A DNA stretch of 8,431 nucleotides. It comes from a virus. Lineage: Duplodnaviria; Heunggongvirae; Uroviricota; Caudoviricetes. How positions within the stretch are numbered: position 1 is the first letter of the stretch; every line of letters begins with the position of its first letter. Made by a program: the position numbers and the translations under genes. The notes beneath the pieces were generated by a model. The model had not been told where the DNA came from and did no database searches. It worked only from the letters and a program-made list of their open reading frames with translations. Location: IMG/VR virus record IMGVR_UViG_2713896773_000016, positions 1-8,431 of that record. One strand, written 5' to 3'. Below, in pieces: positions 1-8,431 of this stretch.

Positions 1-64
1 GTTGTGTACTTTTTTTCTGGCTGATTTGCACCAAGCTTATCAAAAAAAATGGACAAAATCATGA

Positions 65-1366
65 TTAGCTCTCATTCCCGCGCTCATGCAAGCTCCGGCT
101 GTAAACAGAGTCAGCCGGCATTTCTACGCGCACGGAAACGAAATGATCGGCAGGGATATCTACCGGCTCCCCCTCTTCGATTCCGTCTCGTTCATTTCTG
201 GCGAATACTGGGGCGGTTGGATATGTGCGATGATAAGTTCTAACCAAAATGGAACCGTCCGCATTAACTTCATAATCGAGCCAAATCAGCGGCTGCTTGT
301 TGCGGTCAGTGGGGATATCAAAACCGCCGTCTATGCCTCCCCACGCGGCATCAGCATTAAGCCCCATACAGCCTTCAATGAGATATGCTCCGGTATTAAT
401 ACGGGTTACAGTGCATCCTGCTGACTCATCGTTTAATTGAAATTCACCATCAGAATAAATCTTAACAATCGGAGAGGCAGACTTTATAAATCCACTACTA
501 TCTACCGTTGTGTTTTGGTCCGTCCACATTCTGGTTCGCCATGATTCTGTATTAACATCTACTCCAGAAGCTTTAGTCTGTTTGCACACAACACCAACAT
601 TTTTGGACGAGCTATTGGCATACCAAGTAAAGGCGAAGTTGTTCACACCCTCGTTTGTTTTTGCCGTCAGTTTACCTTCATGACCAGCACCACCAAAACC
701 ACCTGCTGATAAACTTGAATAGTACCAGGAAAAAGAATTTTCACTCTCCGCTGCCGATAGAGGCGGGGCCTTAACAGGGGTGCCAAAACCAAAATCGCCT
801 AAAGAAAGAATATCTCCGGATGTGCTGTAAGCATTGCGTGTGGCGCTACTTCCTAAACCGAGGTTTGTGCGAGCGGCTTCTTTGGTTTTTGCGCCGGTCC
901 CACCCTGGTCAATACTCAATGCTGTACTTAGCCCTTTCAGCTCTGTGATATCGCTATTTGCCCCTTTCCGGGCGAGACCACCGATGGCAGGAATGCTGAG
1001 GCTGGTGCCGTTGATTGTCACAGTGACCAGTTGGTTCGCTGAGGTACTGGCGAACGTTTCCCACGCACCGATATTCTCGTCATACTCATTGATGAGCTGA
1101 GACATGGCCTGTGCCAGTCCATCAACCGAGATAATGTCTGATACCAGAATGCCGTACTTCTGGCCGCTCAGCGCCGGGGAAGCAGCTGGAGTAACCGTCA
1201 TTGACGTGGCGCTATTCACGGATGAAATCTGGAACATCTGAACCGGGTTAGACATGACAATAATCGTCTGGCCAGCGCGAACCTGGCTGGCCGGTGCAGT
1301 CCAGTTTGTACCGGAGCCGGTTGCGGTATTTCCGTTAATAGAGATAGTTCCGGTGCTATAAATCAT
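65..1366 (-). CDS. Phage tail fiber protein (side tail fiber / receptor-binding fiber), 433 aa
   Basis: Seen: ORF 1366->65 with AGGAG 5 nt upstream of the ATG (minus-strand reading AGGAGTTGTTATG). The translation has a Gly/Thr/Ser-rich N-terminus (MIYSTGTISINGNTATGSGTNWTAP...) and the motif LSIDQGGTGAKTKEAARTNLGLG (aa 150-172, plus ~851..917). Established/inference: from memory this QGGTGA...AR.NLGLG motif is recurrent in enterobacterial phage tail fibers; position directly downstream of J agrees. The C-terminal ~140 aa has no motif I recognise. Confidence 0.7.
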   Translation of the reverse strand: MIYSTGTISINGNTATGSGTNWTAPASQVRAGQTIIVMSNPVQMFQISSVNSATSMTVTPAASPALSGQKYGILVSDIISVDGLAQAMSQLINEYDENIGAWETFASTSANQLVTVTINGTSLSIPAIGGLARKGANSDITELKGLSTALSIDQGGTGAKTKEAARTNLGLGSSATRNAYSTSGDILSLGDFGFGTPVKAPPLSAAESENSFSWYYSSLSAGGFGGAGHEGKLTAKTNEGVNNFAFTWYANSSSKNVGVVCKQTKASGVDVNTESWRTRMWTDQNTTVDSSGFIKSASPIVKIYSDGEFQLNDESAGCTVTRINTGAYLIEGCMGLNADAAWGGIDGGFDIPTDRNKQPLIWLDYEVNADGSILVRTYHRTYPTAPVFARNERDGIEEGEPVDIPADHFVSVRVEMPADSVYSRSLHERGNES

Positions 1367-1486
1367 AACAACTCCTAAATTTAGACAACATGAAGCCCGG
1401 AGAGGTATATAACCATCACCAGAAATAATTTCTGAATTGGTTTTTAATACATATTGGGCAACCTTCCAATTGTGTTATAGACTACT

Positions 1487-1520
1487 AAATATTAACCCCT
1501 CAAAAGAGGGGTTAATATTT
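1487..1520 (-). terminator. Perfect 15-bp inverted repeat with 4-nt loop (AAATATTAACCCCTC-AAAA-GAGGGGTTAATATTT), a terminator-like hairpin overlapping the J stop codon
   Basis: Seen: plus 1487-1501 is the exact reverse complement of 1506-1520. The GC core CCCCTC/GAGGGG is followed on either strand by a U-rich stretch (minus RNA ...GAGGGGUUAAUAUUUAGUAG). The J stop codon (1520-1522) sits at the edge of the stem. Inference: intrinsic terminator and/or RNA-stabilising stem-loop at the 3' end of J, possibly bidirectional. Confidence 0.5.
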
Positions 1521-4500
1521 TAACCTGTGAATGAACCAGATCCGTGTGATACTATGATAGTAGGAGAAGAAATGGACGCACCCCTGCCATTTTGAGCGGA
1601 CACTTTAATACTTACTGTTACGTCTGGGCCTGTCACAACCGCAGAATGCATGATAAGTCTATCTGTGTCTTGCACGGATGAACCACTCTCATTACCGTTG
1701 ATATTGATTATTCCCGCACCATTACCTTTAACGTTTGCTATAACACAGACGTGTCTTGCGTGCCCAGAACTGGATGAATCCTTATAAGTCATTACCTTTT
1801 CTAAAGATCCATCGTTATCCCGACTCACATTCGTCCCTGTGTGCATATTTGCAATGTCCCCGATAAAACTTTGGGCTTCCACAGTCCCTTTGAATTTACC
1901 GCTTGTTGCTTGGATCTCACCAGTAAAGCTACCGCCACTAGCATATACTACACCTCTGACGGTCACATTGTTGAATTCAGCATCTCCAGCTTTATTCAAC
2001 TTCCAACCAGCAGAACCAGCTGCATAGTTGTTGGACTGGATATAGTTGCCGATTTTGGCGTTCTCAATGGTGCCGTCCTGGATGAAGCTGGCCCGGATGA
2101 ATGTCTGCCCGTTCTGGATCACGAACGGCAAAGCTACGCTATTTCCGGCTGCCGTGGTGACGGCGAAGCGGTCAGCCAGGAAGATAACCTGCGACTGCAT
2201 GCCGGATGGCGTATTCTCCACGCCGATACCCATCCCCGCGGCGTAATACTGCCCGTTGCTGGAGACACCAACCTTGATGTTATACATCGCGCTGAGTTCG
2301 CCATTAACGTTGGCTATAGCCTGAGCGTTAGTGGTGATGGCGGAGGTATGCCCGTTCACGGTCGCCGTGATGCCGTTTATCTGCGTGGCGGTGGCCTGCT
2401 GATAGTCGGAGAGCGTCTGATTCAGGCTGTTGATGGATGCCTTGTTGCCGTTGACGTCCGTCCGCAGGCTCAGCAATGAACGTGCTGTGGCTTCCTTCTC
2501 ACTGACGATCACCTCGTCGAGACGATCCAGCTGCGCACTGTTACCGGCGACCGTTGCGGAAAGCCTTTTGCGTGTGGCCACCTGCGCCAGTCCGTTCTGG
2601 ATAATGGCAATGGCTGAGTTCTTAACCCCGCCCGTCATGCCGTCCATAGACACGCTGATGCTGTCGATTCGCTGGCCCAGCGCGGTATCAGCCGTTGCGA
2701 CGGTCTGCTCAAGATCTGATAGAGAGGACGACACATCACCGACCGTGCTCGAAAGCTCATTAACACTGGTCTGAACCTGCCCAATGTCCTGCGCGTTTTT
2801 TGCGATTTCCTGCGCCTGGAGCTCAAGTTCATCGTTGGCCTGTTTGATGTCGTCAGCCATGCCAGCAATTTTTTCATTGCTGTCCACCGCGTTCTCGATC
2901 AGGTCTTTGAACGTATCGGAGTCTTTAATTTCCTCCAGAATCACATCTGTGATATCGGAAACATCGATGCTGGCCTGTCCTCGCACCCATTCTGTGTACC
3001 CTGATTCGTTGCCGCTGCGGTCCACCAGCTGCGCGCGGTACCAGAAAATCTGCCCAGCCTTAAGCCCCATCTGCTGATAAAGTTTCTGCGGATACGGTAC
3101 AGATGCCAAAAGCATAGGATTCGAACCGTCAGCGGCAATGCTGTATTGCAGTTCAGTGCTCAGGGTGTCGCCGGTATTAGCCGGGAATCCCCAGGTGACG
3201 TTGATTCCGAATACGACGTCTTCGGAGGCCTTAAGCCCGACAGGTTTGGGTACCTCACCCGCGCGTCCCTTCAGGTGTGTAAGCGCGGAAGTTGCCCAGA
3301 GACTCGATGCGCCGCCGGAGTTGATCGCGCGTACACGGACCAGATAATCACCCTCGAAGATGCCAGGCACTTCGATATTGCGAAGACCGGTCTCCGGTAC
3401 GTTAACCCACTCATTGTCGCCGCGCTTCCACTGCACCCGATAGGCTATGACATCCGCCTGTGGTTTGCCGTTCTTGTCGACCGGCGCATCCCAGGATGCC
3501 GTCAGGGTAGCCACTCGCTGCCCCTGGCGCACTGCGTCATAGCTCGCTACCACGATATTGGTCGGCTGGTTGACGAGGCCGGTTGGTATCAGACTAATTG
3601 GCGGCGTGTCCAGGCGGGCATTGTTATCGACCGCATCATATTTTGATGCGTTATATTCGGCCCCGGTGATAGTGAAGGTGTTTTCTTCATCATCAAATCT
3701 CAGGTTCGTAACGCGGAAGTATTGCAGGCGCAACTGCCCTGCATCGATGACGAATACAGCGTTAGGTAACGGCTCTGCCGTGAAAGGCGTGGCGATCACC
3801 AGCTGCGTGCCGTTTACGGCCTGGATCACCCTGCTTTCGACGGTACCGCCCCGTGTGCGGATCATCAGTGTGTCACCCGCAACGGCACTGGTTCCCCGAT
3901 CGGTTGTCACAGCCTTCAACCCGGCGTTATATCCGGTTATACGCCCGCCATAAACACGCCCTGAAAGGCGTTCGTCAGCAAATGCAAACACGGTACCCGG
4001 CACGTAGACATAGCCATCAAGCCCGGTCTGTAGCGTAATAATCCGGTCGAGTGAGTTGGAATACACCGCCCACCCGCCACGGCGCTGTGCTTCGCTCTCG
4101 CGCGTACAGCCGATTGCGGTGATCTGCGTCTGCTTAAACTTGAACTGCTTAACCAGGTCCGGGAACATCACCGCTGTTGTGCGGTCCTGATAGTGATTGT
4201 CAGGGTCGCTGAAGTTAATCAGCGCGCTGGAGAAGCGGGTCTTTTCACTGCCGCTCGAGTAAACCGGTTTGCCCACCACCGAAGCGCGGGTAAGGATTTG
4301 CAGCTTCGACGTATCCGCCGGCATGTCCGAGACAACATTGAACATGTTGTTGCCCCAGAAAGTCATTCCGTTGAAGCCCGCGGCAATATCTTTAATCACC
4401 TGCCAGGCATCAGCCTGGGACTGGATGTAAACGTCAAACATGAAGCGTGGCTCGGTACCGCTTCCGCCTTTCCCGTCGGGTACCTTCTGGTCGCAGCGCT

Positions 4501-5434
4501 GGGCGATGCGATAGAGCTCCCACTTATCGAGCATTTCTGGCGTCACGCGGCGCCCAAGGCCGAAGCGCGGCTCAGTCAGAACATCGAACCAAATCCACGC
4601 CGGGTTATTCGTCCAGCCCCATTTAAACGTCCCGTCCCATGTTCCGCTATAAGTCCGCGCTATTGGATCATAGTTCGAAGGGATTCGGATGATGCGCCCC
4701 TTCGGCATGCAGGAAATCTTAGGGATGTTGTTGAATGACTTTGCGTTAAAGGACACGTACAGCAGCGCTGTGTGTGGATATCGCAGGCGAGCATCGATCA
4801 CTTCAGTAATCGCTTGCACCTGCGTTTTGTTCTGCAGCATCTGGCTGGTGCTGTCATCGGTGTCACGCACCACTCGAATTTGCCAGCCAGTGCTGGCTTT
4901 GGGAAGATTAATACGGTGGGTTAGTTCATAGAGCGAGCTGAGCTTCTCTGTGACGGTTTTCGTCATGACTGTCGAGTAAGCGCCACCGTCCACCGCCAGA
5001 TCAATATGGTACTGAACCGTAGTGCCGACAATATCCCCATCGTTTTCCTGCTGCTGTAACCCAGGGATGCCAATACGAACCAGCACCGCGTCAATCTGGG
5101 TGTTACTCAGTGCGCGGGTCCATGGTGTGGCCTTTGTCAGCGATACCCCAACCGTAGTTTCATTCTCGACTGCAGGGAATCCCGGTATTGGTGTCTGGGT
5201 CTGTGTGCCAGGCCGGAAATCCCATGACACATTTTCAAAATTCATCGTTCCGTCGGGGTTTCCCAACGGCGTACCGTCCAGGAATATCCGGGTCGCATCC
5301 AGGCCACCAGCAAACTCCCCCTCCCCGAGCGCCAGCAGCATGCGGCAGCGCGCCATTGACTGCGCCGAATCGGGCTGTTCTACAGGTGTGTGCTGCTTCT
5401 GGCTGCCACCCTTTGCACCAGTGATCGCTTCCAT
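1520..5434 (-). CDS. J: Host specificity protein J (central tail fiber / tail tip protein), 1304 aa
   Basis: Seen: 3915-nt ORF. Translation matches remembered lambda gpJ blocks: N-terminal KGGSQKQHTP (lambda KGSSKGHTPRE), QNKT, YSGTWDGTFK (lambda YSGIWDGTFK), CDQKVPDGKGGSGTEPRF (lambda CDQSVPDGFGGTEPRI), a fibronectin-III-like segment (aa ~640-720) and QYYAAGMGIGVENT...VIFLADRFAV (lambda HYVAGIGLSMED...FLVAANRIAF). Established: gpJ forms the tail tip and binds the host receptor through its C-terminal domain. Confidence 0.92.
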   Translation of the reverse strand: MEAITGAKGGSQKQHTPVEQPDSAQSMARCRMLLALGEGEFAGGLDATRIFLDGTPLGNPDGTMNFENVSWDFRPGTQTQTPIPGFPAVENETTVGVSLTKATPWTRALSNTQIDAVLVRIGIPGLQQQENDGDIVGTTVQYHIDLAVDGGAYSTVMTKTVTEKLSSLYELTHRINLPKASTGWQIRVVRDTDDSTSQMLQNKTQVQAITEVIDARLRYPHTALLYVSFNAKSFNNIPKISCMPKGRIIRIPSNYDPIARTYSGTWDGTFKWGWTNNPAWIWFDVLTEPRFGLGRRVTPEMLDKWELYRIAQRCDQKVPDGKGGSGTEPRFMFDVYIQSQADAWQVIKDIAAGFNGMTFWGNNMFNVVSDMPADTSKLQILTRASVVGKPVYSSGSEKTRFSSALINFSDPDNHYQDRTTAVMFPDLVKQFKFKQTQITAIGCTRESEAQRRGGWAVYSNSLDRIITLQTGLDGYVYVPGTVFAFADERLSGRVYGGRITGYNAGLKAVTTDRGTSAVAGDTLMIRTRGGTVESRVIQAVNGTQLVIATPFTAEPLPNAVFVIDAGQLRLQYFRVTNLRFDDEENTFTITGAEYNASKYDAVDNNARLDTPPISLIPTGLVNQPTNIVVASYDAVRQGQRVATLTASWDAPVDKNGKPQADVIAYRVQWKRGDNEWVNVPETGLRNIEVPGIFEGDYLVRVRAINSGGASSLWATSALTHLKGRAGEVPKPVGLKASEDVVFGINVTWGFPANTGDTLSTELQYSIAADGSNPMLLASVPYPQKLYQQMGLKAGQIFWYRAQLVDRSGNESGYTEWVRGQASIDVSDITDVILEEIKDSDTFKDLIENAVDSNEKIAGMADDIKQANDELELQAQEIAKNAQDIGQVQTSVNELSSTVGDVSSSLSDLEQTVATADTALGQRIDSISVSMDGMTGGVKNSAIAIIQNGLAQVATRKRLSATVAGNSAQLDRLDEVIVSEKEATARSLLSLRTDVNGNKASINSLNQTLSDYQQATATQINGITATVNGHTSAITTNAQAIANVNGELSAMYNIKVGVSSNGQYYAAGMGIGVENTPSGMQSQVIFLADRFAVTTAAGNSVALPFVIQNGQTFIRASFIQDGTIENAKIGNYIQSNNYAAGSAGWKLNKAGDAEFNNVTVRGVVYASGGSFTGEIQATSGKFKGTVEAQSFIGDIANMHTGTNVSRDNDGSLEKVMTYKDSSSSGHARHVCVIANVKGNGAGIININGNESGSSVQDTDRLIMHSAVVTGPDVTVSIKVSAQNGRGASISSPTIIVSHGSGSFTG

Positions 5435-5445
5435 ATTACATCCAT

Positions 5446-5470
5446 AAAAAAAGCACCCAATTGGGTGCTT
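5446..5470 (-). terminator. Terminator-like hairpin between I and J: palindrome AAGCACCCAATTGGGTGCTT followed on the minus strand by a 7-U run, ending 12 nt upstream of the J start codon
   Basis: Seen: plus 5451-5470 is a perfect 20-nt palindrome (GC core GCACCC/GGGTGC, AATT centre); plus 5446-5452 is A7, giving U7 immediately 3' of the stem on the minus-strand RNA. Inference: intrinsic terminator or attenuator; function unproven. Confidence 0.45.
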
Positions 5471-5489
5471 GATATTCAGAAAGGAGTTT

Positions 5490-6083
5490 TCAGATGTCTT
5501 CAGCGACTATGCCTGCACTGATGATGGCGCCGCCAATCTCACGGACGCCATAGAGAAGCGCGACCGGGCTTCCCATCGCAAGGGTATTCACCGAGCCACC
5601 AAAGGCATAAGAGGGTTTATTGTCAGGGTCGTCTCGCCCCTGTAACCCTTTGGGCTGAGGTGATAGCATCTGGTAAATGCCGCCTGCCATCATTGACGCG
5701 CCCGACATCGCAAGGCCTGTGCCAAACGTAGCCAAAGTACCGGAGCTAAAGTAAGAAATTGCGATACCAGCCACCACCATCACAGCGCCCAGGATGGTCT
5801 GAAATACTCCGGCTTTTTTCGAACCTTCCATAATCGGCGCAATGCGGATATCACTGTCTCCTGCCAGCTCCTGGAAGTCCTGAGTGCCGATATTCCTTTT
5901 TCCGCGAAACACCGCGAAGATCATGCCATTTTTTTTGGCATTCATCAGATAATCTTCCAGCCCGTCGAAGTTGATACACAGGGCTTTGACCGCTTCGGCA
6001 GATGTCTGCACTGCCAGTTTATGCACACGCCCGAAGCGGGCGCCCAGTGCGCCATACAGACGAATGGTGGTTAAACGCGCCAT
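5490..6083 (-). CDS. I: Tail assembly protein I (lambda gpI-like), 197 aa from the preferred start
   Basis: Seen: the track ORF is 5490..6170, but the ATG at 6083-6081 is preceded by AGGAGA with 7-nt spacing and overlaps the K stop (6071-6073) by 13 nt, typical translational coupling. Translation MARLTTIRLYGALGARFGRVHKL... with an internal hydrophobic Gly/Ala-rich stretch (GVFQTILGAVMVVAGIAISYF). Established/inference: position between K and J plus family-like features support gpI; I could not align to lambda gpI from memory residue by residue. Confidence 0.8.
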   Translation of the reverse strand: MARLTTIRLYGALGARFGRVHKLAVQTSAEAVKALCINFDGLEDYLMNAKKNGMIFAVFRGKRNIGTQDFQELAGDSDIRIAPIMEGSKKAGVFQTILGAVMVVAGIAISYFSSGTLATFGTGLAMSGASMMAGGIYQMLSPQPKGLQGRDDPDNKPSYAFGGSVNTLAMGSPVALLYGVREIGGAIISAGIVAEDI

Positions 6084-6802
6084 GGCTTTATCTCCTGCGG
6101 CAGGTATTTGTGACGAACGCAGATCATCGTGCGGTCTTTGAAATAGCCACGGGCATAAGGCGTGACACACGAGGGCTGGCCGTAAAGATGGTGCAGCAGT
6201 TCGCCTTCTTCAGTGATGATGCCCGCATGGTTCCACTTATCCGAATCAACCTGCATGATGACCATGCAGCCTGGTGCCGGATCGCACTCGACGAATCCTT
6301 CCCGTTCCCAGTTATCAAAATAGAGGTTGTCCGGGTACTGGCTTTCCCACCACGGGTAATCGACGCGAAAATCGTTCAGCGTGACGCCCTGAATGGCGTG
6401 CCAGTCCATAATCAGCCCCCAGCAGTCATTCGAGCCCAGGATAAACGGACGCCCAATAAGCGGCACCGCCTCCGGCATTATCTCGGCGTATTCATCGCTG
6501 TCCGGAGCGTAAATACCCCATACCAAGCCGGAGTTGTTGCACTGCTGGCGGTCCAGATCTGACGGAATAGGCCGGGCACCGTCGCCCGGGTGGGAGTGGA
6601 TGACGCGAATAATCGTCCCGATATCTTCGGCGTTAGCCCAGTGCTCGCCGTCGATGCGAAAATGTTCTGTCGGATTTTCGTGCGTATTCGGCACGGGAAT
6701 GTAGCGCTGGCGACGGCCAGACTGAATAACGAAGCCACAGCACTCACGCGGGGATTCCTCCAGTGCATGCGCCCGGATAGCTGCCATTATGGTTTTATTC
6801 AT
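6071..6802 (-). CDS. K: Tail assembly protein K (lambda gpK-like; MPN/JAMM-type motif plus NlpC/P60-type Cys/His motifs), 243 aa
   Basis: Seen: translation aligns with remembered lambda gpK: IRAHALEESPRECCGFVIQSGRRQRYIPV...PTEHF (lambda IRAHAAAEYPRECCGVVAQKGRRQRYFP...PTEHF), HSHPGDG...S..D (lambda HSHPGG...S..D), NDCWGLIMDW (lambda TDCYTLFRDAY), NHAGIITEEGELLHH (lambda NHAAIYCGDGELLHH). The ATG at 6802-6800 lies 13 nt downstream of the moron terminator and has only a weak SD. Confidence 0.92.
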   Translation of the reverse strand: MNKTIMAAIRAHALEESPRECCGFVIQSGRRQRYIPVPNTHENPTEHFRIDGEHWANAEDIGTIIRVIHSHPGDGARPIPSDLDRQQCNNSGLVWGIYAPDSDEYAEIMPEAVPLIGRPFILGSNDCWGLIMDWHAIQGVTLNDFRVDYPWWESQYPDNLYFDNWEREGFVECDPAPGCMVIMQVDSDKWNHAGIITEEGELLHHLYGQPSCVTPYARGYFKDRTMICVRHKYLPQEIKPWRV

Positions 6803-6811
6803 TGGTACGTC

Positions 6812-6838
6812 CGTAAAAAAACCCGCCGAAGCGGGTTT
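6812..6838 (-). terminator. Rho-independent terminator of the moron gene: stem AAACCCGC / GCGGGTTT, loop TTCG, then a U-run (minus-strand RNA)
   Basis: Seen: plus 6819-6826 aaacccgc pairs with 6831-6838 gcgggttt (8 bp, GC core, 4-nt loop); the minus-strand RNA reads AAACCCGC-UUCG-GCGGGUUUUUUUACGG, a canonical intrinsic-terminator architecture. It lies 7 nt after the moron stop (TAG, 6845-6847) and upstream of the K start. Confidence 0.75.
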
Positions 6839-6844
6839 GGTTAT

Positions 6845-7594
6845 CTAGATGGTTATGGAGAGGTCGGGCCTAACCTTTTTCCTGAGAATGTATTTGCTAA
6901 TGCCAGTCCGTAACGCGGCCTCTTTAAGTTGCATTTTTTCGCCATTCAAAATTACGTAAGGGATTCGGTTTCGTACAGGTTTCGCTAACGCATCTTCGGC
7001 ATTCATACCGGCGTTTAGTCTGTTGTAAAAAGTTGACTCTTTCATGCCATTTGTTTGCCATGCTGCGCTCATAGTTACCGACTCTCCGCTCACGACAACT
7101 TTATGATTATTGCGCTTGTTGCGACCTTGCTCTGTAGCATTTGCCCATCGACAATTGTCTGGAGAATAGCCTTTATTGTTATCTATGCGTTCAATTGAGA
7201 ACCCTTTAGGCTTCTCACCCATGTCATGAGCAAAATTCACGGGGTTGCTCCATTCATCGCAGACTGTTATACCCCGCCCGCCATAGTGGGGAAAGTCCTT
7301 GCAAGCAGGATTTCGACAGCGATCAAGCATAGATGTCCAAGACGAATATCCTGAATAAGCTGTGATTGGCTTGCCATTATGCAGTTTTGTTATTTTTTTC
7401 TTATGATAACAGCCGCAAGAAACAACAGCGCCACTACGGAGTGACCCCATGGAAATGCTCTTAACAACACCACATTCACAAGAGCACAAAAAGTATCTGA
7501 GACCTTTTGTTTTTATATGGCTAGGGGCTTTGGTTTCTTTAATAATTGTAAGATAGCCGTACTTTTCACCCGGAAAAATAGTAATGCGTGACAT
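6845..7594 (-). CDS. Accessory (moron) gene inserted between L and K: 249-aa protein with a Cys-rich zinc-ribbon-like N-terminus, an HNH-like endonuclease-related core and C-terminal HTH-like modules
   Basis: Seen: ORF with SD GAGG 5 nt before the ATG (minus reading ACGAGGTTTATATG), flanked by 99-bp and 42-bp non-coding gaps and followed by its own terminator. Motifs: CSCECG...SCGC (Cys cluster); YSGYSSWTSMLDRCRNP...HYGGRGITVCDEWSNPVNFAHDMGEKPKGFSIERIDNNKGYSPDNCRWANATEQGRNKRNN; C-terminal VILNGEKMQLKEAALRTGISKYILRKKV. Established/inference: from memory this YGGRGI..C..W...F..DMG..P.G.S..RID.N..Y.P.NCRWA...EQ..N pattern is a widespread phage family usually annotated as HNH endonuclease. The position where HNH enzymes carry the catalytic His reads E-R here, so nuclease activity is uncertain. 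Confidence 0.6.
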   Translation of the reverse strand: MSRITIFPGEKYGYLTIIKETKAPSHIKTKGLRYFLCSCECGVVKSISMGSLRSGAVVSCGCYHKKKITKLHNGKPITAYSGYSSWTSMLDRCRNPACKDFPHYGGRGITVCDEWSNPVNFAHDMGEKPKGFSIERIDNNKGYSPDNCRWANATEQGRNKRNNHKVVVSGESVTMSAAWQTNGMKESTFYNRLNAGMNAEDALAKPVRNRIPYVILNGEKMQLKEAALRTGISKYILRKKVRPDLSITI

Positions 7595-7686
7595 ATAAAC
7601 CTCGTAGCAGGTTGCGTAGATGATGGTGCGCGGCAGGAGTGTCTACGTTCACTCTCTTCGACTGGCCAGTCTAGCCGCGCTGACAG

Positions 7687-7692
7687 ATTATA
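7687..7692 (-). promoter_or_regulatory. Candidate sigma70 -10 hexamer (TATAAT on the minus strand) immediately after the L stop codon, ~90 nt upstream of the moron start
   Basis: Seen: minus-strand reading ...TAA-TTATAAT-CTGTCAGCG...; perfect TATAAT but no convincing -35 at 16-18 nt spacing (best is TACCAC). Inference only; it fits the moron architecture of promoter, gene, terminator. Confidence 0.2.
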
Positions 7693-7693
7693 A

Positions 7694-8431
7694 TTACCTG
7701 CTCAGTAAAGTGGTAGCAGGAAATCCACCGTAGTCGAGGATGGCCGCGTTCGGCTCCGCTAGGCCAGCGCCGAACCGTTTACGGCAATCACTGAGGCAGC
7801 CCCCACACGCATCCAGCGGCGGATCAGCCACCGCGTTACCCTTCGCGTCGAAATATGCCGTACCGTTATAGGTGCATCCATCGCCGCTCCGGTACTGCCC
7901 GCGTAGCGCCCATTCGCAGAGCGAGGTGATTTGTCTGGTTGGGATAACAAGCCCCTGCAAGTCAGCGGGGCTACTGAGTGACCATGAAACCACTTCGTCG
8001 TCTTCGGAGGTTTTCGTGTCAAGCCAGAAAGTCTGAAGCGTGAACATCGACGGGTCGGCGGTCGGGTTCACCCCACCAGGGTAATTCACGGCATCGAGGT
8101 AAACCGAATAGGTGTCGATAATGCTCACTTTTGCGTTAACCATGTCCTTAAATTGCAGGCACAGCGCAGTGATATGACCGTCGAGGTTGGAAACGCTAAG
8201 AGACGGCTCTGCCGCCTGGTCTGTTGATAGCTCCAGGCCTGAAACCTGAAACGGCCAAAAATCGTAGATATTGCCACCGAAGACAATTGGCTTGGGTCCA
8301 AGCTTTTCTTCATCTCCATTGGCAGCATCAATTTCTTCCGGCGTATGGGGGAAAGGTGCGTAGTGGAATCGGTGGATTCCGCCACTGAACTCTGAGGCGT
8401 CAACTTCAACCAGGCGTACCCTGCCACCCGG
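7694..8431 (-). CDS. L: Minor tail protein L (lambda gpL-like), 5'-truncated by the window edge (C-terminal 245 codons present)
   Basis: Seen: I translated the minus strand from 8431 down to the TAA at 7694-7696; the frame is open across the whole stretch with no stop (PGGRVRLVEVDASEF...SLSVSNLDGHITALCLQFKDMVNAKVSIIDTYSVYLDAVNY...CGGCLSDCRKRF...). The ATG at 8143 in the ORF track is therefore an internal Met. Matches remembered lambda gpL: TLTVSNLYGMVT / YARFLDAVNF / CSKCLSGCKFR. Confidence 0.88.
   Translation of the reverse strand, partial: PGGRVRLVEVDASEFSGGIHRFHYAPFPHTPEEIDAANGDEEKLGPKPIVFGGNIYDFWPFQVSGLELSTDQAAEPSLSVSNLDGHITALCLQFKDMVNAKVSIIDTYSVYLDAVNYPGGVNPTADPSMFTLQTFWLDTKTSEDDEVVSWSLSSPADLQGLVIPTRQITSLCEWALRGQYRSGDGCTYNGTAYFDAKGNAVADPPLDACGGCLSDCRKRFGAGLAEPNAAILDYGGFPATTLLSR

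Follow-up and report, generated by a model that had tools for sequence, protein, structure and literature searches.

Why should a structure that resembles a transcription terminator stand immediately in front of the gene for the central tail fibre, within a block of tail genes that all lie on one strand? This question was raised by the 55-bp spacer between genes I and J in a stretch of Caudoviricetes DNA of 8,431 nucleotides (IMG/VR record IMGVR_UViG_2713896773_000016, positions 1 to 8,431; termed the window hereafter). According to the original prediction, which was made from the letters of the window, the spacer holds a palindrome followed by a run of U and might represent an attenuator, a processing or stability element, or the scar of a lost or exchanged cassette at a mosaic junction.

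Pfam domains and the comparison with Escherichia phage HK639 assigned all genes of the window to the minus strand (Table 1). The I-J region showed 95% identity to phage HK639 and 99.8% identity (over query) to a prophage of E. coli 21AR0133, and the window is an HK639-like lambdoid prophage. The start of gene I at 6089 is an estimate taken from the 600-nt HK639 gene; the mechanical open reading frame reaches 6170. A frameshift in gene L of the window was ruled out, as HK639 L residues 12-256 align in one frame to the window end (tblastn). The 153 nt that separate the stop of J from the following tail-fibre gene contain a short terminator-like hairpin (CCTCTTTTGAGGGG, 1496..1509, minus strand) with an A/T-rich tail behind it.

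Table 1. Features of the window around the I-J junction, with per-position diversity (pi) among 47 distinct relatives that have an empty I-J slot and a GCACCC-type stem. The last row refers to other loci, which are denoted by L numbers throughout.
Feature	Position	Strand	pi	Remarks
L	runs past window end	minus		Pfam / HK639 comparison
Inserted 249-aa ORF	7594..6845	minus		between L and K
K-proximal terminator	6815..6838	minus		AAACCCGC-UUCG-GCGGGUUU and U-run; 12 nt before K ATG
K	6802..6071	minus		Pfam / HK639 comparison; ATG at 6802
Tail assembly gene I	5490..6089	minus		Pfam Lambda_tail_I; HK639_22 'tail assembly protein'
I third codon positions			0.44	
Gene I stop TGA	5492..5490	minus		
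I-J spacer	5435..5489	minus		55 nt; order: variable 5' spacer, hairpin, U-tract, J leader
Variable 5' spacer	5489..5471	minus	0.40	19 nt
Terminator hairpin	5451..5470	minus		identical in HK639, labelled 'terminator' there
5' stem arm	5470..5463	minus	0.08	AAGCACCC
Loop	5462..5459	minus	0.37	AAUU
3' stem arm	5458..5451	minus	0.03	GGGUGCUU
Run of seven U	5446..5452	minus		last two stem bases shared with the run; five more T past the stem
U-tail, five scored positions	5450..5446	minus	0.00	invariant in 47 relatives
J leader	5435..5445	minus	0.09	11 nt from last U to J ATG; AUGGAUGUAAU
J ATG	5434..5432	minus		
Gene J, central tail fibre / host specificity	1520..5434	minus		1304 aa; Pfam FNIII-A_GpJ, Phage-tail_3, Phage_Tail_Tip
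J third codon positions			0.30	
Tail-fibre gene	1366..65	minus		
Terminator and promoter-like box in T1-like loci	L253 (Shfl1) 408..445; L255 (Alina); L251			

The coordinates and the anatomy first described for the spacer hold on the minus strand. A perfect 20-nt palindrome, AAGCACCCAATTGGGTGCTT, occupies 5470..5451; as RNA it gives an 8-bp stem with five G-C pairs and a 4-nt loop (AAUU) at -12.7 kcal/mol, and this hairpin is the sole stable element in a 76-nt fold. Seven U had been placed after the palindrome; a run of seven is indeed present, but the last two T of the palindrome belong to it and five lie beyond the stem. On the opposite strand there is an A7 ahead of the stem and no T-run beyond it. 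Hairpin and U-run together are a predicted Rho-independent (intrinsic) terminator on the late, J-coding strand, where a terminator-like structure had been recognized from the letters, and this terminator separates the genes for tail-tip assembly (L, K, I) from gene J for the central fibre.

Downstream of the U-tract, the 11 nt to the J ATG leave no room for a promoter. A candidate promoter for J within the spacer (TTGGGT-16-TAATAT) was rejected, as it overlaps the ATG, would start inside J and was not flagged by the scan. The ribosome-binding signal of J is weak, as predicted, with GGA at 5443..5441 as its only Shine-Dalgarno-like element. The leader further contains an out-of-frame ATG 10 nt 5' of the J ATG that opens an upstream reading frame overlapping the J start (5444..5379, minus strand). 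Its ATGG was kept in enterobacterial relatives, with TTG or GTG instead in two, and the ATGGA of the leader was invariant among close relatives. We rejected a 21-codon upstream ORF starting at 5444 as the conserved unit, because beyond the ATGG neither frame nor length is kept: the ORF has 4 codons in L069-type loci and is missing from the Pseudomonas type. The GGA Shine-Dalgarno element and the A/U-rich leader offer a simpler explanation for the conservation of the ATGG.

A generic terminator scan of the window returned 13 sites compared to 8.7 +/- 3.5 in shuffled sequences, which was not significant overall, with the I-J site ranking first. A strict search, which required 8 or more Watson-Crick pairs with 5 or more G-C, a loop of 3-8 nt and at least 7 T of 8, left the I-J hairpin as the sole site in the window, and none was found in 300 dinucleotide shuffles. 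The generic scan misses the K-proximal terminator, apparently because the maximal stem is counted and too few T then remain. Rfam models run over the spacer gave sub-threshold matches only (Phe_leader, 23.8 bits vs a threshold of 55; Yfr10, 24.8 vs 43). A leader-type attenuator or riboswitch was rejected on the basis of these scores and of the single stable element in the 76-nt fold.

The GenBank record of HK639 (HM208537.1) labels positions 19137..19160, between HK639_22 (tail assembly) and HK639_23 (host specificity), as 'terminator'. Hairpin, U-run and leader are identical in HK639 and the window, and the one substitution in the spacer lies in the 5' spacer, outside the hairpin. The label is a sequence-feature annotation of the record. 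The late operon of HK639 carries six annotated terminators between the terminase genes and J, namely the one at I-J and five more, and the phage encodes a 'Q antitermination protein' (HK639_66). Terminator-like structures had been thought unusual for a tightly packed tail operon, a view not borne out by these six terminators and by the I-J hairpins of lambda, phiKO2, ENT39118, pAEv1818 and T1-like phages. Both the kind, i.e. terminators within lambdoid late operons, and this instance, by its annotation in HK639, were already known. What we add is evidence on positional conservation, on selection and on a cargo slot at this site.

In the E. coli 21AR0133 prophage the gene for an 'antitermination protein' precedes the lysis, terminase and tail genes and has their orientation, a lambdoid layout that HK639 shares; Q is in this way documented for relatives (HK639 and the 21AR0133 prophage), at a place outside the 8.4-kb window. 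We favour the reading, with a probability of roughly 55%, that the I-J element is a fail-safe terminator which is overridden by Q in lytic growth and which closes a cargo slot. During lytic growth Q-modified polymerase coming from the late promoter would read through the I-J terminator, and expression of J would depend on this read-through, because the 11 nt to the ATG leave no room for a promoter. When Q is absent, as in the lysogen, or when transcription starts from inserted genes or spurious promoters, polymerase would stop and J and the genes downstream of it would stay silent. The same terminator would also close a recurrent slot for cargo between the I stop and the hairpin.

If the element were instead an attenuator, a part of the polymerases would stop even in lytic growth, J mRNA would be less abundant than L-K-I mRNA, and the stoichiometry of the tail tip would be set at the level of transcription. 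The observed terminator anatomy is compatible with this, and partial termination is one of two roles proposed for intra-operon terminators in work on phage L, the other being to stop spurious, non-antiterminated transcription (bioRxiv 10.1101/2020.10.05.325894). A strong stem with seven U is, however, expected to stop most unmodified polymerases, and as re-initiation is impossible within 11 nt, J would be starved. It also counts against an attenuator that Q-modified polymerase passes terminators efficiently across the whole lambda late operon. We return to this explanation below with the virulent phages.

For the analysis of conservation we drew on viral contigs, from which 240 loci with a J homologue and its surroundings were taken, in three groups: relatives of the window J (88-100% and ~55% identity), of the lambda J and of a Pseudomonas J. 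Across these ~240 loci, almost every enterobacterial or Pseudomonas relative had a GC-rich hairpin with a U-tract just 5' of J, and the hairpin was present in all close relatives of the window. The 198 distinct loci had 348 terminator-like sites on the sense strand, of which 127 fell into a single bin, the 100 nt before the J start. When the 50 nt upstream of J were reduced to 132 distinct segments, 121 contained a hairpin. The T-tract was canonical in 90 of these and weaker or interrupted in 31, which include the lambda type. The remaining 11 segments had no hairpin; together with a few segments with spurious calls, these were mostly loci in which I and J abut or overlap. Spacer lengths were accordingly bimodal, either up to 13 nt without or 43-80 nt with a hairpin. 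The 121 hairpin-bearing segments used ~20 genuinely different 6-bp core stems (e.g. GCACCC/GGGTGC, ACCCGC/GCGGGT, GCCACC/GGTGGC, GCCCAC/GTGGGC and CCTCGC/GCGGGG), the automatic tally of 28 having counted in a few spurious pairings. A MAFFT alignment of all hairpin types left the stems out of register, and base pairs were counted in Python for each sequence separately. The distance from the stem end to the ATG was 14-23 nt overall; the enterobacterial relatives had 14-18 nt, and most members of the lambda and Pseudomonas groups 19-23 nt.

Two further observations were made in this collection. In several Pseudomonas-type loci (among L166-L187; e.g. L166, L167, L170, L171, L186, L192) the predicted fold pairs the U-tract (UUUUUUUUC) with the Shine-Dalgarno region of J (GAAGGAAAG), at about -30..-3 from the ATG, and a coupling of the terminator tail to J translation is possible in this clade according to the model. 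In E. coli VREC0761 (L002) an IS3-family element, ISSen4, is inserted at 3293..4590, ~18 nt into J and directly past the terminator and leader, so that J is disrupted; a frameshift RNA element was detected within this ISSen4 copy (Rfam).

Whether the hairpin is maintained or is a mere remnant can be judged from its diversity. Among the 47 empty-slot relatives the constraint on stem and U-tract equalled that on codon positions 1 and 2, whereas the loop and the 5' spacer varied like synonymous sites. From this contrast, and as far as these comparisons go, the hairpin is an RNA structure under selection rather than a neutral scar. The loop occurs as AATT, AGTC, AATC, GGTC or CTCC. Since the loop drifts, the perfect 20-nt palindrome is incidental: it exists because the loop happens to be AATT in this lineage. 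Interior wobble pairs pointed in the same direction: on the sense strand G.U was found in 26 distinct sequences compared to A.C in 2, and this bias places the constraint on the coding-strand RNA and not on duplex DNA.

These data bear on two rival explanations. A palindrome acting at the DNA level could be a site for binding or cleavage by a protein (a regulator, recombinase or homing endonuclease) or a repeat of the host REP type. The perfect dyad in the window and the insertion of homing endonuclease genes at I-J in some relatives would be in line with such a role. The dyad centre is nevertheless not conserved, its central 4 nt being variable, and the wobble pairs are specific to the sense strand, which is a property of RNA. 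The spacer was found in 12 of 5426 complete E. coli genomes, with one copy per genome and always at I-J, and we rejected both a protein-binding DNA palindrome and a host REP/BIME-type repeat on these grounds. Of the two outcomes that the original prediction had named as refuting, absence of the hairpin from close relatives and a host repeat, neither was observed. We regard an explanation at the DNA level as extremely improbable.

The second rival, put forward in the original prediction, is that a terminator was left behind by a cassette lost from I-J and is functionless now. Cassettes with a terminator at their 3' end do occur at I-J in 18% of relatives, the L-K cassette of the window carries its own terminator, and in L021 and L040 the cargo precedes the same GCACCC hairpin. 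A neutral leftover is hard to reconcile with strong purifying selection on stem (pi 0.03-0.08) and U-tract (0.00) in 47 relatives with an empty slot, in which 30-44% of synonymous sites (pi 0.30-0.44) differ and the loop (0.37) and the 5' spacer (0.40) vary. Furthermore, the empty slots of lambda, phiKO2, the Pseudomonas group and Aeromonas all retain a hairpin, with different sequences. The scar explanation is therefore very unlikely.

The further suggestion that I-J is a mosaic junction where cassettes come and go was borne out. An I homologue could be identified in 234 loci, and 42 of these (18%) carried 0.5-2.1 kb of cargo between the I stop and the hairpin; in the cargo-bearing loci the hairpin always adjoins the J ribosome-binding site. 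The slot of the window is empty (55 nt), and a moron in the sense of an extra gene between I and J is absent from it. The cargo genes encoded PHROG-890 lipoproteins, a TonB_C-domain protein (L077), small convergent ORF pairs (L070-L076), a P22-type antirepressor next to a ribbon-helix-helix gene (L061; the latter assigned by eye from its translation) and HNH endonucleases preceded by an int-alpA RNA motif (L021 and L040, both upstream of the GCACCC hairpin). In Stenotrophomonas phage CUB19 an HNH homing endonuclease is annotated between I and J. A consensus sigma-70 promoter 5' of the cargo genes was found in neither L054 nor L066.

The window itself carries an insertion at L-K. A terminator-like structure had also been noted before K, and we confirmed it with AAACCCGCTTCGGCGGGTTT at 6838..6819 and a T-run that ends at 6815 (minus strand). 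Upstream of it, the 249-aa product of the supposed moron (6845..7594) had no Pfam match and matched PHROG HNH-endonuclease families strongly (phrog_374, E = 3e-59). The insertion lies just past the L stop, and the order within the cassette is int-alpA RNA (7681..7614), HNH endonuclease ORF and own terminator. HK639 lacks this cassette between L and K, and its L stop is directly followed by CCGGACGTACCA-ATG with the K ribosome-binding site. The inserted ORF is a moron in the sense of an extra gene between neighbours that are adjacent in HK639, and from its sequence the insertion looks like a mobile homing-endonuclease cassette.

The int-alpA motif (RF02996) scored above the gathering threshold, with 39.4 bits in the window (7614..7681, minus strand) and 44.6-45 bits in L021 and L040 (2068..2138). 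Each time it lies directly 5' of a free-standing endonuclease ORF in a junction of the tail operon, which is L-K in the window and I-J in L021 and L040. The association of this uncharacterised motif with endonuclease cargo may merit a separate study.

A post-transcriptional role has to be weighed against the fail-safe reading. After read-through, the hairpin might shield the upstream K-I mRNA from 3'-to-5' exonucleases, or the 5' end of J mRNA after an RNase E cut in the A/U-rich spacer, and the U-run may be an S1-binding enhancer that offsets the weak Shine-Dalgarno element of J. The tightly fixed distance from stem end to ATG within the enterobacterial and, for the most part, the lambda and Pseudomonas groups, the invariant ATGGA of the leader, the reduction of the Shine-Dalgarno element to GGA and the length of J, which at 3.9 kb is a long target for endonucleases, would all suit such a role. 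In particular, that the 11-nt leader is invariant and the distance to the ATG fixed is as compatible with an element for J translation or mRNA stability as with our main reading. The most conserved part (pi 0.00) is, on the other hand, the U-tract, for which a stabilizer would have no need. Nor does the hairpin always lie close to the ribosome-binding site, since in Motto and Shfl1 it stands directly 3' of the I stop and 40-60 nt from J. On balance we consider a post-transcriptional element rather unlikely.

The virulent T1-like phages Shfl1, Jk06, Alina and Motto carry a canonical hairpin with U-run directly 3' of the I homologue, and in the Pseudomonas phage Motto a terminator is annotated at the I-J junction. 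The leader from terminator to J measures ~20-70 nt in these phages (~50-70 nt in three of four), compared to 11 nt in the window. In Shfl1 and Alina this stretch contains a promoter-like TGTATAAT or TGTACAAT (extended -10-like) past the terminator, and Jk06 is without such a box. The box was read from the sequence and was not flagged by a two-hexamer scan. The string ...GCGGGTTTTTTTTCGCCTG of Shfl1 is the same as in Pseudomonas prophage-type loci. Judged by this arrangement, J is probably its own transcription unit in T1-like phages, and the pattern suggests punctuation by terminator plus promoter. To our knowledge these four phages have no lysogenic state and no known Q. As they keep the terminator after I, silencing in the lysogen is not the universal reason for its presence.

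That the terminator is kept in virulent phages without known antitermination would also suit an attenuator. The promoter-like element past the T1-like terminator, however, suggests full punctuation and re-initiation and not leakage, and we regard attenuation as unlikely. In view of the T1-like phages, the boundary before J looks like an old transcriptional punctuation mark.

Taken together, lambda-like and T1-like tail modules from enterobacteria and Pseudomonas almost always have a terminator where I meets J, which selection maintains and which marks a hot spot for the insertion of accessory genes. The site is a well-defined and conserved test case for the roles of intra-operon terminators. 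In practical terms, it helps to place J start codons and flags the I-J gap for searches of prophage cargo. The Cronobacter phage ENT39118 (L247, ~953..1070) provides an example of the former. Its J start in GenBank overlaps I by ~60 nt, and a conserved ATG (ATGGAAAAAATAACCGGTAAAAAGGG) is found downstream of the hairpin GGCGCCTGCGGGCGC and seven T. Because of this downstream ATG the deposited J start is probably misplaced.

Among known systems, phage lambda has a 60-nt gap between I and J with a GC-rich 8-bp stem and tetraloop at 15463..15482, AAACCGCC-TGCG-GGCGGTTT, followed by TGTCATTTATGG. As at the junction of the window, a U-rich stretch and then UAUGGAG stand ahead of the J ribosome-binding site. 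The stem sequence of lambda is unrelated to that of the window, and the lambda hairpin is a weaker predicted terminator because its U-tract is interrupted (UUUUGUCAUUU). It was absent from the list of the generic scan. The lambda-type I-J hairpin was conserved in 80 lambda-type loci, and a literature search for experimental data on the lambda I-J terminator found none.

The layout of the window recurs in ENT39118, phiKO2 and Aeromonas phage pAEv1818. The linear-plasmid prophage phiKO2 has an annotated 'putative terminator' between gp20 (I-like) and gp21 (J-like) with an architecture identical to that of the window, i.e. GGCCACC-TTGC-GGTGGC, seven T, ATGGACGCGAT and ATG, although the stem sequence differs. 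A moron, gp19, with a terminator after it lies in the same tail-tip gene block of phiKO2, between K and I, whereas the insertion of the window lies between L and K.

Phage L offers a comparison at the level of the operon, as its Q-type late operon, which has one promoter, contains predicted terminators whose roles are described as not known (bioRxiv 10.1101/2020.10.05.325894). In the P22-like phages L and epsilon34, moreover, the stretch just 5' of the receptor-binding (tailspike) gene is a cargo region of high variability (PMC2629481); their tail genes are those of podoviruses and not homologous to I and J, so that the likeness to the window is one of organization only. We further propose, tentatively and at somewhat less than even odds, that the J-proximal terminator is a selected insulator which also delimits a general landing pad 5' of the receptor-binding gene in lambda-like siphophages and which would keep J strictly dependent on late antitermination whatever inserts upstream. 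With its homing endonucleases, some of them with int-alpA, its lipoproteins, TonB-C-domain protein and antirepressor modules, this landing pad of lambda-like siphophages would parallel the variable slot 5' of the P22 tailspike gene.
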